Source: a bacterium (GTDB lineage Bacteria; UBA8248). From it: a stretch of 64,000 bases of DNA. Each line of letters begins with the position of its first letter. Position 1 is the first letter of the stretch. Shown piece after piece: positions 42,022 through 50,653 of this stretch. The position numbers and the translations under genes were made by a program. The stretch covers positions 2,624,001 through 2,688,000 of the forward strand of contig CBDBEV010000001.1 in NCBI GenBank assembly GCA_965204535.1, read 5' to 3'. The notes below the pieces were generated by a model. That model had not been told where the DNA came from. It searched no databases and worked only from the letters and a program-made list of their open reading frames with translations.

Positions 42022-42915
42022 ATGTCACCGATCACGAAAGTAGACGGGTACGCCTATTATCCGGGCAGCAGGACGCGCATCGACGCCATGCGCTCCGCCG
42101 ATCCGGCCAAAACGCCGTGGACGCCGCTGCCGAAGCCGCTCTCGGAGTGCAAGGTCACGCTCGTCTCCACGGCGGGCATCTTCATGAAAGGTGACGTTTC
42201 CTTCGATTACGAGCGCGAGTGGCGCGAGCCGCACTGGGGGGACCCCACCCACCGCGAGATTCCCAGAACGGCCGCCCAGGATGACTGTGAATACTCGCAC
42301 CTGCACATCAACACCGAGTACCTGAAACAGGACAGGAACGTGTCGTTTCCGGTGGACATTTTTCTGGACTACGAGCGCGAGGGGAAGATCGGCGCGCTCG
42401 CCGACACGCTCTACTCCACCATGGGCTATACGCCCAACTTCCATCCCCTGCTGAAGAAGACGGCTCCCCTGATGGCCGAAAAGATGCACGCGGAGGGTGT
42501 GGACGCGGCGTTTCTCATCCCCGTCTGACCGCTCTGCATGCGGTCCGTGAGCCTGCTGCAGAGAAGACTGGAAGAGTTGGGAATCGCCACCGTCTCGATA
42601 TGCAACCAGCCGGACGTGTCCGAGAAGGTCTGTGTGCCGAGGGCGGTCTTCATCCAGTATCCCTTCGGGCGCATGCTGGGGGACGTGGGCGACAGAGCCG
42701 GCCAGCGCGCGGTGTGCGACGACGTGTGCGCGCATCTGGAAGCCGCAGATGGCCCGAACGCCTACCGCCACCTCACGCACGAGTGGCCCGAACCGCCCGA
42801 AGAGACCCAGTGGAAGCCCCTCACGCCCGCGCCCATGCACGTCCTGCGCAACAACGGCACGGCGCCCAAGGGCCTCGCGCACTACCAGGACGACGAGCGG
42901 CCCGATTTGACGTAA
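42022..42915 (+). CDS. PrdB/GrdB-like selenoprotein; Sec at TGA 42526-42528 (297 aa, joins two track ORFs)
   Basis: PWTPLPKPLSECKVTLVSTAG, DRNVSFP, EGVDAAFLIPV-U-PLC.RSVSL..R.LEE.GIATV, VPRAV...YPFG; the two ORFs are in the same frame. Confidence 0.9.
42532..42563 (+). promoter_or_regulatory. Candidate bacterial SECIS element
   Basis: CTCTGCA-TGCGGTC-CGT-GAGCCTGC-TGCAGAG hairpin directly after UGA; small G-containing apical loop about 17 nt from the UGA. Confidence 0.65.
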
Positions 42916-42948
42916 GCGCCTCGTCTCGGTTCCGGCGTGGGCGAAATT

Positions 42949-43556
42949 GTAGGGACAGGTCGCGACCTGTCCCTGCGGGAGGACAATCACGGGGGGATGT
43001 CCCTACGACGTTACAGGTCGACCGAGCCGGTGACCTGTAGGGGCCGCATACATGCGGCCCATTCTCTTAGGCCATCAAACCACGGGTCGTATATATGTGT
43101 GGGGCGGCCCCGAGGAGGGGCCGCCACCTACAAACGGGTTCACGATCAAAACAACATGCGGGCGGACACACGGGTCCGCCCTGCGGTAATCCTCCCTCCC
43201 CGGTTGGGGTTCACCCGTAGGGACAACCCCCCGTGGTTGTCCTTTGTCAGGGTGTCGGACAGGCACGGGGGCCTGTCCCTACGGGGCGGTGCCTCCTCGG
43301 TCGGTTGGATTGCCCTCTTACCTGCATGAAAAGCAACCCCCCCTACCCCCCCTTGACAGGGGGGTATAAAAAGGCGACGCCCGCCGCCGGGTTGAGAGGG
43401 GTTTTGCTTTTTCTTGCCCCCCTGACAAGGGGGGGTAGGGGGGGTTGGTTTTGTGCCCTGAGGAGGGGGGACTTTTTCAACAACCCCATATGCGACCCCA
43501 GCAAACGGGTTCACAATCAAAACGACACACGGGCGGACACACGGGTCCGCCCCTAC
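42949..43556. repeat. Large mosaic REP/BIME-like cluster (at least six families)
   Basis: Family A 42949; GTAGGGGCCGCATACATGCGGCCC 43037; GGGCGGACACACGGGTCCGCCC x2 (43160, 43531); GTAGGGACAACCCCCCGTGGTTGTCC 43217; C-rich/G-rich inverted pair 43337-43444. Confidence 0.9.
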
Positions 43557-43589
43557 GGCGAACTCTCCCTCTCCCCGGTCGAGTTCGAC

Positions 43590-43931
43590 CTAAAACAACC
43601 GCCCGCCCAACACCGCGCCCTTCTCATCCGGCGCGATGAGCACCACCTCGCCCCGCTCATCCGGCACGCCGAGGGTGAGGACTTCGGACATGAAGGGCCC
43701 TATCTGCCTCGGCGGGAAGTTGACCACGGCGAGAACGAGTTTTCCCTGGAGTTCTTCTTTGGAGTAAAGCGCTGTGAGCTGGGCGGATGATTTCCTGACC
43801 CCCAGTTCCTCGCCGAAATCGATCCAGAGCTTATAAGCCGGTTTTCTCGCCTCGGGGAAATCCGCCGCCTCGACCACGCGCCCCAGGCGGATGTCCAGCC
43901 TGTCGAAATCCTCCATCGTCGCCATTTTCAT
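43590..43931 (-). CDS. csaA: tRNA-binding protein / export chaperone CsaA
   Basis: DFDRLDIRLG, FPEARKPAYKL, SSAQLT, VVNFPPRQIG...SEVLTLG. Confidence 0.93.
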   Translation of the reverse strand: MKMATMEDFDRLDIRLGRVVEAADFPEARKPAYKLWIDFGEELGVRKSSAQLTALYSKEELQGKLVLAVVNFPPRQIGPFMSEVLTLGVPDERGEVVLIAPDEKGAVLGGRLF

Positions 43932-45818: not shown

Positions 45819-46562
45819 TCAGATCGCGCACCAGCCGTCGTCGACGATGAGGTCTAAGCCGTGCACCGCGCTCGCGTCGTCTGACGCCAGGAACACCGCC
45901 GCGCCCGCCATCTCCGCCGTCGTGATGTAGGCCCGGCCCGTGGGCGTGTAGCTCGCCATGAGCTTCACGAACTCGGGGTCGTCTTGCAGGTGCTGGTTGA
46001 GCGGCGTGGCCGTGTTGCCCGGCGAGATGCAGTTCACGTTGATGCCGCACTTCGATATCTCCGCCGCCAGCGCGCGCGTGATCATGTAGACCCCGCCCTT
46101 GCTCGCGCAGTAGGGCACCGCGTTGGGAAAGGCGTGCGTGGCGGCGATGGAGGCCATGAAGATGATCTTCCCGTAGCTCTTCTCCTTCATGATGGGCACG
46201 ATGGCCTGCGAGAGCAGGAAGTTGCCCTTGAGATTAATGTCGATGATGTCGTCCCACTCCTGCTCGGAATAGGCCTCGAGTTCCTTGTTGATCATGATGC
46301 CGTGGTTGCCGACGAGGATGTCCACCGTGCCGAACGCGCTCACCACGTCGGCCACCATGGCGTCCACCGCCGACTTCTTCGATACGTCGCACGGAAACGC
46401 GCGGGCCGCATCGCCGATCTCGGCGGCGAGCGCCTCTCCCGTTTCCGCCGTGCGGTTCACGACCGCGACCTTCGCGCCCTCTTCCGCGAAGCGGCGGCAG
46501 ATGGCCTCCCCGATTCCCTGCGAGCCGCCCGTGACGATGGCGACCTTGTCTTGTAGCTTCAT
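45819..46562 (-). CDS. Short-chain dehydrogenase/reductase
   Basis: TGGSQGIG, YCASK, VNCISPG, VDDGW. Confidence 0.95.
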   Translation of the reverse strand: MKLQDKVAIVTGGSQGIGEAICRRFAEEGAKVAVVNRTAETGEALAAEIGDAARAFPCDVSKKSAVDAMVADVVSAFGTVDILVGNHGIMINKELEAYSEQEWDDIIDINLKGNFLLSQAIVPIMKEKSYGKIIFMASIAATHAFPNAVPYCASKGGVYMITRALAAEISKCGINVNCISPGNTATPLNQHLQDDPEFVKLMASYTPTGRAYITTAEMAGAAVFLASDDASAVHGLDLIVDDGWCAI

Positions 46563-46704
46563 GGGTGTTTCCTCCCTGCGGCGCTCCCGGGCGGCCCCGA
46601 AAGCGAAAAGTCCCCGGTAAAAGATTGCGTCTCGATTTTTGCGGGCATGATACCGCCCTTTGGTTCAAGGGGGAAGGGGAGGGGCATGGTTCCGGTGAGC
46701 GCCT

Positions 46705-46982
46705 GTAGGGGGCGCATATATGCGCCACGTGGTTTGGACGGCAAAAACGAAGGGACGCATGGTATGCGTGGGACGGCCCCGAGGAGGGGTTCGTCCCCTA
46801 CGGTGATATTGCAAGAATTCGTAGGGGCGGACCCGTGTGTCCGCCCGAATGATACGGGAAATCTTCTTGGATCGGTTGTAGGGAGAGGTCGCGACCTGTC
46901 CCTATGGGGCTGGAGGGATCAATCCTGCCCGTCATTCCGGTGTCAGACCCGACCAAGGCGGGAGGGTTTGACGGAATCCAGA
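46705..46982. repeat. Mosaic REP cluster left of the low-GC cassette
   Basis: GTAGGGGGCGCATATATGCGCC 46705; ...CCCCTAC 46770-46801; GTAGGGGCGGACCCGTGTGTCCGCCC 46821; family A 46878; CCGTCATTCCGG..CGGAATCCAG 46929-46981. Confidence 0.9.
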
Positions 46983-47254
46983 GCAGAGTGGGTGGGCGAA
47001 TGCGTGGTCTTGGCGTCCCATTTTGATTCCCGAAAATGTCCCCAAAGCGGCGAGTTAATGCTGACTTTGAGGGCTATCAAGTAGATTGTCCACTGAAACG
47101 ACCTTATTGGATACATTTATTGGCATTAAAACCATATAAAATCCCTAATAAAAGATATAATAACATCAATATAAGGGCTTAATAGCTCTGTTATATGGGT
47201 ATATATTGAATGTTAGAAGTAAGGACGCAACCATTTACAAATTAGGAGTTCATC

Positions 47255-48208
47255 ATGCGAATAAACCCGGAAACCTTAAAGAAGTTGCGAAAAAGCAAAG
47301 GATTCAGCCAACAGACGTTAGCGGACGAATCGGGCGTTACAAAAAAGACCATTGCGCGTATTGAAGGCGGAAAAGGAGGAGAAACGCGTGGTTCAACCAT
47401 GCGGGATCTCGCCAAAACCTTGCGTGTCAACCTCGAAGTTTTGACTCAGGAGCCTGATTCTGAAGCAGTACATGATGAAGAAGTCCGAAAAAAATATGGG
47501 TGGGGTGTTTTGAAACTTAGGCTACGCTTCGATGGCCATGATATAATTGCCTATGATCTTATTCAGGATCGCTACGGCGTTGGGATGTACGATCTGATCA
47601 AGGTTGCCCCCCTACTGTTCACAATTTTGTCTGAGCGGTCTCTCGCCGAACGCCGCCGCCGTCTTGAGCAAGCGGAAGCAGCATTAGAAAATTTTCCTGA
47701 ACATCTTATACCGCGCAGTTGGCTGGCGCTCGACGCAGAGAGAGCATCTATCGCCGAGAGAGATATTTTTGTGCGCTCCATAGACGAGCATGAGGTCAAC
47801 GATAGTTATTACGGGGACAACCGCAACCCATTTAACGACTTCTTGATCGAACAGGCGAAGAGTTTGGAGCCTGACAATGACGCAATCGATGCCGATGATA
47901 TCCATAATCTCGGCAATTTCGACGATTTGCCGAGTTTCAATCTTTTCGAGTCATACCGGAAAAAAATTACTGGTGGTTCTCGCCGCGCCGACTACGCTTT
48001 GTCTCGTGGCTATGTTCGCATTAGCGAAATTCCGGAAGAACTTCGCGGAGAGGATGAAAGTGTTACTGCCGAGCGCGTGAAGCGGTTGGAGTCGAAGGTC
48101 AAGGATGAGGAGTGGATCGAGTATGAAGAGCGGATGCGGCCACTAAGAGAAGCGGCCGCCAAAGTTATCGATAAATCGTTGAACGAAGGAGATACGGAAA
48201 ATGCCTAA
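47255..48208 (+). CDS. XRE-family HTH protein with large unknown C-terminal domain
   Basis: LKKLRKSKGFSQQTLADESGVTKKTIARIEGG; AGGAG RBS; lower GC than the host genes. Confidence 0.85.
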   Translation: MRINPETLKKLRKSKGFSQQTLADESGVTKKTIARIEGGKGGETRGSTMRDLAKTLRVNLEVLTQEPDSEAVHDEEVRKKYGWGVLKLRLRFDGHDIIAYDLIQDRYGVGMYDLIKVAPLLFTILSERSLAERRRRLEQAEAALENFPEHLIPRSWLALDAERASIAERDIFVRSIDEHEVNDSYYGDNRNPFNDFLIEQAKSLEPDNDAIDADDIHNLGNFDDLPSFNLFESYRKKITGGSRRADYALSRGYVRISEIPEELRGEDESVTAERVKRLESKVKDEEWIEYEERMRPLREAAAKVIDKSLNEGDTENA

Positions 48209-48560
48209 TTACAAAATCACACCTCACGCCGAGGTGCGCATGAGTCAGCGAGGAGTTCGGTACGAAGACGCAGTAGAGGTGCTGACATGCGGGACGCAGA
48301 GCGGCCCCGTCGAGTGGTTTATGCGAGATTCAGATGTGAAACGTGAGGTGGAAAATCTGAAACGCACGACCCGATGGATTGAGCGTACAGTGAAGGGCGG
48401 GAAGCAACGGCTCGAACGCGCTATTAAGCGAAGGATCCAGTGGCTGGAACGGCTGAGGGGTCTCAAGGTCGTGGTTGATGGCGACACGGTGATTACCAGC
48501 TATTGGCCGAGTGTGGCGCGTCAGCGGCGGGCGCGCCGTAGAACCAGGCCCAGGCGATGA
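48201..48560 (+). CDS. DUF4258-like small basic protein (candidate toxin)
   Basis: TPHAEVRMSQRGV...V...G and KVVVDGDTVITSY; 8-bp overlap with the upstream gene. Confidence 0.7.
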   Translation: MPNYKITPHAEVRMSQRGVRYEDAVEVLTCGTQSGPVEWFMRDSDVKREVENLKRTTRWIERTVKGGKQRLERAIKRRIQWLERLRGLKVVVDGDTVITSYWPSVARQRRARRRTRPRR

Positions 48561-48567
48561 AATTTGC

Positions 48568-48854
48568 CGTCATTCCGGCGCACGCCGGAATCCAGGGCGG
48601 ACGGGAATGGAGGAAAAATGTGGATGCGGCGATCCGGTGCGGGTGGCGGGATACCCAAAATCCTAGGTTCTCTTATCGGTTCTGGATTCCGGCCTTCGCC
48701 GGAATGACGAACACGCACGAAAAGCGGGCGGACACACGGGTCCGCCCCTACGGAAACCCTGAGAACCGAACGAACCCGTAGCAGGACAACCCTTTGTGGT
48801 TGTCCTGCCCTCCGTGGTTGTCCTTTTTCAGGACAGGTCGCGACCTGTCCCTAC
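48568..48854. repeat. Mosaic REP cluster right of the low-GC cassette
   Basis: Inverted pair CGTCATTCCGGCGCACGCCGGAATCCAG (48568) / CTGGATTCCGGCCTTCGCCGGAATGACG (48682-48709); family B 48726; family C-like 48781; family A 48830-48854. Confidence 0.9.
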
Positions 48855-50653
48855 TTCTTGCTCAACCGCTTCCGTCTCCGCCTGGTCTTCGCCGTATCCA
48901 CCTCGCCCGCGTCGTCGACCGCGACGCCGTAGACCTTCCAGGCGCGCTCCTTGGTGATCCACTTCTCCTCCACGTCCTCGCGCACCTTCTCGACGGGCCG
49001 CTCGTGCGGCGGGCCGTAGCCGCCCCCGCCCGTGCAGTAGGAAGCCACGTTCTCGCCGGGTTTGAGAATGATGTCCGCGCAGGCGGGGAGATCCTCCAGA
49101 GAGCCGTCCTCGCGCATGAGGAAATTCTTGCACGCCGCTCCGTTCAGCCCTCCGAGCGTTCCCTTCGAGGCGTTTATCGCGCCGTCGGAGACGTAGACGA
49201 CCTCCAGGTCGCCGCCGCCCACGGGGCCGTATTCGCAATAGCCAGAAGGCGCGCCTATCGTCCGGCCTGCGCCCTCGGTGTCGGGCATGAGCCTGCGCGT
49301 CTTGATGTAGATGGGGAAGTGGAGCTCGTCCAGTTCGATGCTGTCCACGAAGCACATGCCGGCGTTGCCCGCGTGTAAAATCGTGAGCCAGGCGTCGGTC
49401 TTGCCCGCGCCCGCCCCGCCCGTGACCATCAGGAACAGGTGGTTCACGAAGGGTTCGTTGTCGTTCCTGGGGTCGAAGCCGGAGATGACGCCCATCGACG
49501 CCGGGAAAATCGGCCCGCATTCCGCCAGGCCGATGCCGTCCTGAATCTTCGAGAACGCGCGCTGCACGGGATTCGTCACGCGGTCGGCGAGGTTGGTGGT
49601 GGCGACGGACATCGAAGTGGGATGCTTGCCCCCGCCCGCGACCGAGCCGTCTCGGATGAGCACGTTGACCCGGCGGAAGCTGCCCGCGTTCGTGGGCACG
49701 ATGTCGTCGATGCTGTTGAACACGCCTATCATGGCGCCCGTGCGCGCGCAGGCCTCGCTCAGGTTCAGGCCGCAGGGCATGGCGTCGGGGTTGTCCCTCA
49801 AATCCACCTCGATGGTGGCCTTTTTATTGTCGATCCGCACGTGCGCGGTGATGGGGATGCCTTCCTCCGGCGTGCCGGGCACGGGGTCGTGCGTACTGTG
49901 GGCCGTGGCCTCGCCCGTGGGGAGTTTCTGGATGGCGGAGACCATGAGCTTCTCGCTGTAGTCGAACCACTCCTTCGAGAAGTCGTGCAGCGTCTCCCAG
50001 CCGTACTCGTCGCCCATGGCGAGCACCTCGCGCTCGCCGATTCTGGCCGCGCCGATCATCGCGAGATAGTCGCCGTACCACTGCTCGGGCACGCGGATGC
50101 GCATCCGGCAAAAGTTGATGAAGTCCTCGTTGTCCTCGTAGTTTGTCTGCACCTTGGTGGGCGGGAAGATGAGCGCGCCTTCTTCATAGACGTCGCGCGC
50201 GTGGCCCATGTAGGTGGTGGGCTGGCTGCAACCGCAGTCCGCCTGGTGGGCTTTCACCCACACGGTGAACTGGTGCTCGCCCCGCTTGTCGATGACGGGC
50301 ACGAGGATGGTGTGGTCCGCCGGGTGCGAGCAGCCGTGGTAGGGCGAGTTGTGCAGATAGGCGTCGCCGCGCTTGAGGTCGGGGTGTAAGTCCATCATCG
50401 AGCGGGCCATCAGGTCCGCCCCGCTCAGGTGGTGGATGGGGAGCGATTCCGCGCCCGTTAAGAGTTCGCACTCGCGCGTTACGACGGAGGTCGAGAAATC
50501 GCGCGCCAGGTTCAGCACGCCCGAGCGGCCCGTGCGCAACAGCGTGTTCGCCATCTTGGTCGTCACGGCGTCGAAGCGCTTGTGCAGCACGGCCAGGGTG
50601 ATGGGGTCGAGTTTCGTCTTTCGCTTCGCGCGTCTGGTTGTTGCTCTCGCCAT
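48851..50653 (-). CDS. Hydantoinase B / oxoprolinase family subunit
   Basis: LDPITLAV, ARDFS, HNSPYHGCSHPAD, KAHQAD, EGAGR..G, TGGGGYGPP. Confidence 0.95.
   Translation of the reverse strand: MARATTRRAKRKTKLDPITLAVLHKRFDAVTTKMANTLLRTGRSGVLNLARDFSTSVVTRECELLTGAESLPIHHLSGADLMARSMMDLHPDLKRGDAYLHNSPYHGCSHPADHTILVPVIDKRGEHQFTVWVKAHQADCGCSQPTTYMGHARDVYEEGALIFPPTKVQTNYEDNEDFINFCRMRIRVPEQWYGDYLAMIGAARIGEREVLAMGDEYGWETLHDFSKEWFDYSEKLMVSAIQKLPTGEATAHSTHDPVPGTPEEGIPITAHVRIDNKKATIEVDLRDNPDAMPCGLNLSEACARTGAMIGVFNSIDDIVPTNAGSFRRVNVLIRDGSVAGGGKHPTSMSVATTNLADRVTNPVQRAFSKIQDGIGLAECGPIFPASMGVISGFDPRNDNEPFVNHLFLMVTGGAGAGKTDAWLTILHAGNAGMCFVDSIELDELHFPIYIKTRRLMPDTEGAGRTIGAPSGYCEYGPVGGGDLEVVYVSDGAINASKGTLGGLNGAACKNFLMREDGSLEDLPACADIILKPGENVASYCTGGGGYGPPHERPVEKVREDVEEKWITKERAWKVYGVAVDDAGEVDTAKTRRRRKRLSKK

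Follow-up and report, generated by a model that had tools for sequence, protein, structure and literature searches.

The window analysed here, a stretch of 64,000 nucleotides of a bacterial genome, contains a two-gene cassette set between two conserved genes. To its left lies an SDR oxidoreductase gene (45819..46562, minus strand; Pfam adh_short_C2, E 6e-63), syntenic in the genus and in family f4, and to its right a hydantoinase B/oxoprolinase gene (48851..50653, minus strand; Pfam E 5e-109), whose nucleotide identity is 86-95% among the genus carriers of the site. The interval between them opens with a cluster of GTAG-type palindromic repeats (46703..46904; GTAGG/CCTAC at 46705, 46796, 46821 and 46878; repeats D2, I1 and I3) and a truncated CGTC doublet (46929..47034, plus strand), made up of a long-loop arm (46929-46981) and a spacer that is cut off after about 55 nt. 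There follow the upstream control region (47035..47254, plus strand), two plus-strand open reading frames of 317 aa (47255..48208, the large gene) and 119 aa (48201..48560, the small gene) that overlap by 8 nt, an intact CGTC doublet (48567..48709, plus strand; two inverted 28-nt arms, an 86-nt spacer, folding z -4.9) and a second GTAG-type cluster (48725..48854). The control region has an AT-rich core and a TGTC(C/T) motif and is likely to hold a promoter and operator; a promoter scan of it returned one 9/12 sigma-70-like match (47179-47207), not above shuffled sequences. A 145-aa open reading frame at 46647-47084 was rejected as read-through of the repeats. An earlier note on this DNA had described an AT-rich unit of two overlapping genes, free of integrase and transposase, and in both respects it was right: GC is 49% between the two copies of CCGTCATTCCGG, compared with 63% for the whole window, and 30% at 47090-47250, and no integrase or transposase was found among the open reading frames between the SDR and hydantoinase B genes. 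The two best sequencing runs, which may be those of the source sample, yield contigs that span 46000-48595 with zero differences, which excludes a misassembly of the cassette.

The cassette had also been taken to lie between two copies of one REP element. CCGTCATTCCGG does start at both 46929 and 48567 in the same orientation, but the units that contain it differ, the left one being a truncated long-loop doublet and the right one an intact doublet, whose second arm falls outside 46929..48596, the extent originally given to the feature. At the place where the right arm has 8 nt, the left, long-loop arm has 32; the right arm fits CGTC-1 exactly (CGTC tag, 8-bp stem, 4-nt loop and CCA tail), and the left arm is a long-loop variant. 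In tag, stem, loop and tail, as in the inverted dimers and the GTAG repeats alongside, these elements resemble the CGTC-tagged REPs described previously (PMC3733652, PMC3898611). CGTC-1 corresponds to Neisseria dRS3, and according to the same paper no transposase is linked to CGTC repeats (PMC3733652). In Neisseria, dRS3 is a phage target and a possible site of gene gain and loss (PMC3898611), and dRS3/NIME arrays have been proposed to promote such changes, as for pilC1 (PMC3733652, PMC3898611); here, by contrast, no integrase or phage is tied to the unit and the repeat is missing from many carriers.

The genome (4.56 Mb, 2 contigs) holds 294 CGTC units in 206 clusters, with intact doublets numbering dozens. 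The doublets fall into several spacer subfamilies, and the long-loop arm variant is common to the genus. The genome is very repeat-rich altogether, with several families of GTAG-type and C-run palindromes at 100-250 copies each, and the one transposase found in it is a partial Y1, away from the cassette. Within the window, a further intergenic repeat cluster (42915-43590) lies between two core-like genes without low-GC cargo. Of the neighbouring CGTC cluster pairs 0.5-5 kb apart (n = 50), three enclose DNA of less than 55% GC, against 7.05 expected from random segments, and the 46929/48567 bracket encloses the lowest GC of all 50 (0.484). In a coarse border test, with random rather than matched intergenic positions as controls, low-GC islands with CGTC at both borders numbered 2/263, 4/377 and 2/281 under three settings (1.05, 1.58 and 1.67 expected; p 0.28, 0.08 and 0.51), and CGTC stood at either border in 22, 41 and 20 (25.4, 37.5 and 26.2 expected). 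Narrower border windows, used first, had given 0/201 both-bordered islands and missed the studied cassette itself; they were then widened, and one of the three widened settings still misses its left border. GTAG repeats were not enriched at low-GC island borders either. The survey that the earlier note had proposed, for low-GC genes between direct repeat copies, thus returned no CGTC enrichment at low-GC borders, an outcome that the note itself had named as refuting its reading. Coarse as it is, the test does not point to a landing pad that operates genome-wide.

The small protein matches DUF4258 over residues 6-32 only, at 20.2 bits against a cut-off of 25, so we call it DUF4258-like and do not file it as a member of PF14076. 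Its profile gathers 768 clusters at 50% identity; 69 of 100 aligned relatives match DUF4258 at E<=0.01 (best 4.5e-8), and in the Atlas a cluster with 14% DUF4258 scores 0.86 for it. His9 and Arg17 never vary among these 100 diverse relatives, and Arg13, Gln16 and Thr99 hardly do, an enzyme-like pattern. The model (pLDDT 81.7) runs helix, helix, two short strands, helical hairpin, two strands, helix. A helical insert had been suspected before, and it is borne out: the hairpin (43-84) is modelled as helices 43-63 and 68-84, many relatives align in two stretches, and shorter family members lack about 22 residues of it. A wide fold search placed five RNase or toxin-antitoxin chains in the top 31, covering the whole model, with a Salmonella toxin-antitoxin chain first. 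Fold matches were 7vd7_A (Z 4.8, rmsd 3.7), colicin D tRNase (Z 4.4, rmsd 2.8), BrnT (Z 4.4, rmsd 2.7), the sequence-specific RNase 3ao9 (Z 4.3, rmsd 2.9) and a CdiA toxin (Z 4.1, rmsd 2.5), all with Z below 5 and level with unrelated helical hairpins. We regard these matches as a weak but coherent indication of a BECR RNase fold. Foldseek searches of the PDB with the small and large models returned nothing at E<=0.001, and profiles of the two families reached no relative with a solved structure.

With the DUF4258 (PF14076)/Ntox49-like BECR toxins the small gene shares an N-terminal HAxxRMxQRG and the antitoxin-first order (PMC11980606; bioRxiv 10.64898/2026.08.28.747851), and its model seems to agree with them in colicin-like topology and in the His on the first helix, the position it has in DUF4258, which has been placed in a colicin-like branch (bioRxiv 10.64898/2026.08.28.747851). 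In its passages on DUF4258, PMC11980606 likewise gives antitoxin-first order, describes the toxins as uncharacterised and lists the target as not known. What sets the present pair apart is the 40-residue inserted hairpin, the score below the Pfam cut-off and a partner of 300-370 aa with an unclassified domain in place of a small antitoxin or MqsA.

That partner is predicted to act as repressor and antitoxin. The pair had been characterised as XRE-HTH plus DUF4258-like, and the first half of this label stands firmly, with an XRE HTH at residues 8-63 (HTH_3, E 6e-11; domain 1-65), whereas the second applies below the cut-off and to residues 6-32. The HTH matches CapH, RmrA and restriction-modification controller proteins (PADLOC E 4e-9 to 7e-7; fold Z 9.5-10.1). 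As in these repressors of defence loci, an N-terminal XRE HTH stands ahead of likely conflict genes, but the likeness ends there: PADLOC found nothing beyond the HTH, and the C-terminal 230 residues or so match none of these regulators and have no Pfam or PDB sequence match. This part defines 103 clusters, nearly all of which have the HTH. Residues 85-130 follow a strand-helix-helix pattern in alignments that is ribbon-helix-helix-like (Atlas lead scores 0.76); no ribbon-helix-helix family is in the top 25 Pfam families for 60 relatives, and we treat this resemblance as a lead only. The hits that the large protein drew in the wide structure search were taken up by its HTH, the part to which the result applies, and Foldseek against viral structures returned nothing for the large model at E<=0.001. 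A complex prediction of two copies of large-protein residues 70-317 with the small protein (score 0.15, mark 0.32) weighs neither way. No description of the large partner was found among the papers listed for DUF4258, XRE plus ribbon-helix-helix antitoxins and Ntox49; the supplementary neighbour tables of the BECR preprint or the mBio paper could list it.

The two genes are kept together far beyond this genome, across phyla. In 16 of 17 loci the large gene lies directly upstream of the small gene, the 17th being a 28-residue match inside a 762-aa open reading frame; seven of the 17 are genus genomes that also enter the site count below, and in one locus (L013) the small gene is split. According to the record titles, these loci span Alphaproteobacteria, Arenicellales, Binatia and Syntrophobacterales. 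A separate clade of large genes stands on its own, the small gene being absent from 7/7 loci examined; among confirmed small genes with enough upstream DNA, none lacks the large gene. A partner that occurs solo and a small gene never seen solo form the asymmetry expected of antitoxin and toxin. Our own genome has two further full pairs (C2:1697064 and C1:871375), with no CGTC unit near their ends, and a solo large gene (C1:1182094). Both dispersed pairs adjoin the same set of GC-rich open reading frames, which may be a shared mobile element and includes one frame whose C-terminus has a CxxC-rich motif, and the pair at C2:1697064 is followed by a homolog of the cargo gene of G013. A 142-146-aa cargo protein without a Pfam or PADLOC match stands behind the pair in two unrelated taxa (L007:6291-6716, L012:3104-3541). 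The solo paralog (G000:C1:1181186-1182094; L091-L096) is GC-ameliorated, evolves with its host and occupies one other variable site, where various low-GC genes lie around it.

With one genome taken per species, 9/23 genus genomes encode the small gene (G000, which is our own genome, and G003, G007, G009, G010, G013, G014, G031 and G034), and in all nine the SDR and hydantoinase B genes flank the pair. Two metagenome records, L099 and L100, carry it at the same place, giving 11 same-site carriers. A readable site without the pair was found in ten genus genomes, the count leaving out G005, G015, G017 and G033, which give no reading across the site: six contain nothing but repeats or a short spacer (G001, G004, G008, G011, G012 and G032), three have parDE or parD instead (G002, G016 and G018) and one has a different low-GC open reading frame (G006). 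In four genomes of family f4 the two flanking genes are 75-260 bp apart. Carriers are dispersed over the hydantoinase B tree, the deepest genus branches included, and their monophyly is rejected on it (p 1.5e-71); the distribution takes 7 changes, a count by which gain and loss are indistinguishable. The cargo behind the pair also varies, comprising RAMA-like, DUF7557-like, TPR and parDE genes and others without identity, and our own cassette has none. The content of the site is thus variable between conserved flanks and mobility genes are absent from it, as in MGE-free hotspots, whose turnover by recombination at the flanking genes is established, and in minimal mobile elements (PMC5635113; PMC3787668, citing Snyder 2007). 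The variable cargo, the conserved flanks, the lack of an integrase and the scatter of carriers on the host tree are common to both (PMC5635113; PMC3787668). The present site, which we assign to this class from gene content, differs in that a single resident pair makes up its main cargo and that the two genes of this pair appear to be replaced separately.

Several further features of the site were seen. In the loci concerned (L070, L071, L076, L084 and L088), parDE occurs on the opposite strand at the same spot in G002, G018 and G034, in the last beside the pair, and only parD is retained in G016 and G005. G009 (L082:2829-3266 and L081) has three tandem copies of the small gene, one of which is fused, with its first 51 residues, to a RAMA-like domain; the region lies on two contigs. 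In G007 (L079), six tandem 20-bp repeats, each with GGACAT, precede the large gene in the control region, possibly an expanded operator array.

How the pair came to lie among the repeats can be read in more than one way. The earlier note proposed that recombination had brought it into a REP landing pad; the cassette would have recombined into a CGTC repeat and duplicated it, as Neisseria filamentous phage do at dRS3, to which the CGTC-1 repeats correspond. The order of arm, part spacer, cassette and full doublet in our window is indeed that of a single crossover, direct CGTC copies lie on both sides of the pair in 4/11 same-site carriers (G000, G007, G014 and G034; L099 is a fifth if one mismatch is allowed), and a 43-bp direct repeat, which includes the end of the small gene, flanks the copy of G034. 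Empty sites with merged repeats, which were predicted, exist as well: G008 holds a single full doublet, which has an arm of the same long-loop type, G012 brings together sequence that matches the two clusters of the window, and in G032 the left and right flanks of L099 are joined over a 36-nt overlap within repeats. The same empty allele arises, however, by deletion between direct repeats, and merged repeats alone fit gain and loss equally. Against delivery, the surroundings of the pair are free of CGTC units in 3/11 same-site carriers (G009, G010 and G031), and G003, G013 and L100 have one on a single side; a direct bracket occurs at 0/11 copies elsewhere, although the upstream DNA of two of these is limited (L015, 146 bp; L009, 511 bp); and no relatives of the unit, itself without an integrase, were found in viral contigs or in phage and plasmid collections. 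The left junction is identical in G000, G013, G014 and L099, which points to one old event. The TGTC(C/T) motif, which lies at this junction, is kept at -219/-220 in 7/11 same-site carriers, including the repeat-free G031, and so belongs to the cassette. Moreover, two pair-less genomes bear scars of the small gene: G006 has its last 37 nt (profile E 2e-5), with 92% identity to G034 over 66 nt, and G018 matches L099 from its final codons onward. A repeat leader does not account for such a scar, as TGATGA occurs within 25 nt in 0/308 repeat upstream stretches of our own genome. Scar-like sequences in G002, G005 and G016 were not significant in the profile search (G005, E 3.4; G002 and G016 were unscored there) and are not counted, and cassette-skipping joints in four sequencing runs were rejected as signs of excision because their sides are short and fit other repeat copies. 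Scars and repeat-free carriers together favour loss over insertion, while the 43-bp repeat of G034 fits regain or duplication through repeats and speaks against a loss-only view. It is therefore more likely that the hairpin repeats around the pair aided its deletion than that they served as its landing pad, and they probably help turnover by ordinary homology. With the missing border enrichment added, delivery into a landing pad is largely refuted as a general route, and we consider it very improbable as the explanation of the site.

A second question is whether alleles have been exchanged at all. Among nine same-site carriers (36 pairs), dS of the large gene ranges from 1.17 to saturated, at 42-68% identity, against 0.25-0.79 for hydantoinase B in the same pairs; part of this gap may be inflated by the lower GC3 and the codon bias (GC3 0.50-0.69 versus 0.79-0.93 in the comparison). 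One ancestral, fast-evolving cassette with several losses and no exchange could account for the kept motif spacing, and, for the large gene, the host clade G013+L099+L100 escapes rejection (p 0.33). The solo paralog of the large gene nevertheless tracks the host clock (dS 0.16-0.78), and the copy of G026, from another family, is as close as the same-site alleles are to one another. The trees of the two genes also conflict, in approximately unbiased (AU) tests of groups that were named from other trees after viewing and in trees most of whose branches are not resolved, which leaves vertical descent some room. G003 and G014 pair as sisters in the trees of the host and of the small gene, a grouping that the large gene rejects (AU p 0.009); their identity is 87% in the small gene and 53% in the large one. 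The small gene of G013 groups with that of G010, outside its own host clade, which the small gene rejects (p 1e-5), and this G013+G010 grouping is in turn rejected for the large gene (AU p 0.0015); the small gene, for its part, rejects two groups of the large-gene tree (AU p 0.001 and 7e-6). With same-site alleles far more diverged than their flanks and with trees in conflict, each gene appears to have been swapped on its own, and purely vertical descent is distinctly improbable. Independent swapping would, on the other hand, suit a pair without toxicity, in which the XRE protein represses an operon of variable cargo and the small protein, its nuclease fold relaxed, serves as co-regulator or anti-repressor. 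The differing cargo, the HTH matches to the defence-locus regulators CapH and RmrA and the weak fold evidence for the small protein agree with this; the enzyme-like conservation around His9 and Arg17, the absence of cargo downstream in our own window and the constant company of the large gene do not, and we regard such a regulatory pair as unlikely.

We favour instead, with a probability of about 0.6, a toxin-antitoxin-like operon that is resident in an MGE-free hotspot and is lost, regained and allele-swapped by ordinary homologous recombination. As in type II systems, adjacent and coupled genes are kept together and the partner has a DNA-binding domain, which would bind an operator. The atypical toxin-antitoxin or defence module suggested earlier, a predicted function, thus gains from the gene order, the overlap, the 16/17 pairing, the DUF4258 affinity and the weak BECR-RNase folds, and the unusual size of the HTH partner is confirmed at 317 aa. 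Against a toxin-antitoxin reading stand the DUF4258 score below the cut-off and the low fold Z values; moreover, an antitoxin of 317 aa is far larger than usual, and free partner swapping is not expected of tightly specific pairs. Mechanistically, the 119-aa protein would cut RNA with His9 and nearby arginines, as colicin-type BECR nucleases do, and the 317-aa protein would use its XRE domain to bind the TGTCC/GGACA motifs upstream, dimerise through its ribbon-helix-helix-like part and restrain the toxin. The pair may have arrived at the site around the base of the genus, and the repeats may have settled around it later, giving direct homology for deletion; this order, pair before repeats, is the parsimonious one on a single flank tree that is itself open to recombination. 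Flanking genes, repeats and the partner gene could then serve as anchors for allele replacement. A bolder version makes the large XRE protein both hypervariable sensor and antitoxin, any allele of which restrains many toxin alleles, and the pair an undescribed toxin-antitoxin-like defence family whose fixed platform captures further defence cargo behind the toxin gene; in our view it is rather unlikely.

In conclusion, the pair is a plausible new variant of the toxin-antitoxin theme whose delivery mechanism is ordinary. To the DUF4258 branch it adds a large partner whose C-terminal part, found in more than 100 clusters, has no Pfam or PDB match. In a genome rich in repeats, direct REP copies on either side of a foreign cassette can have arrived late and be a record of loss, and the natural pairs in which one gene has been swapped offer a ready test of neutralisation specificity. 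Were the sensor-antitoxin reading true, sensor and RNase alleles would combine in changing pairs on one fixed platform of the chromosome.
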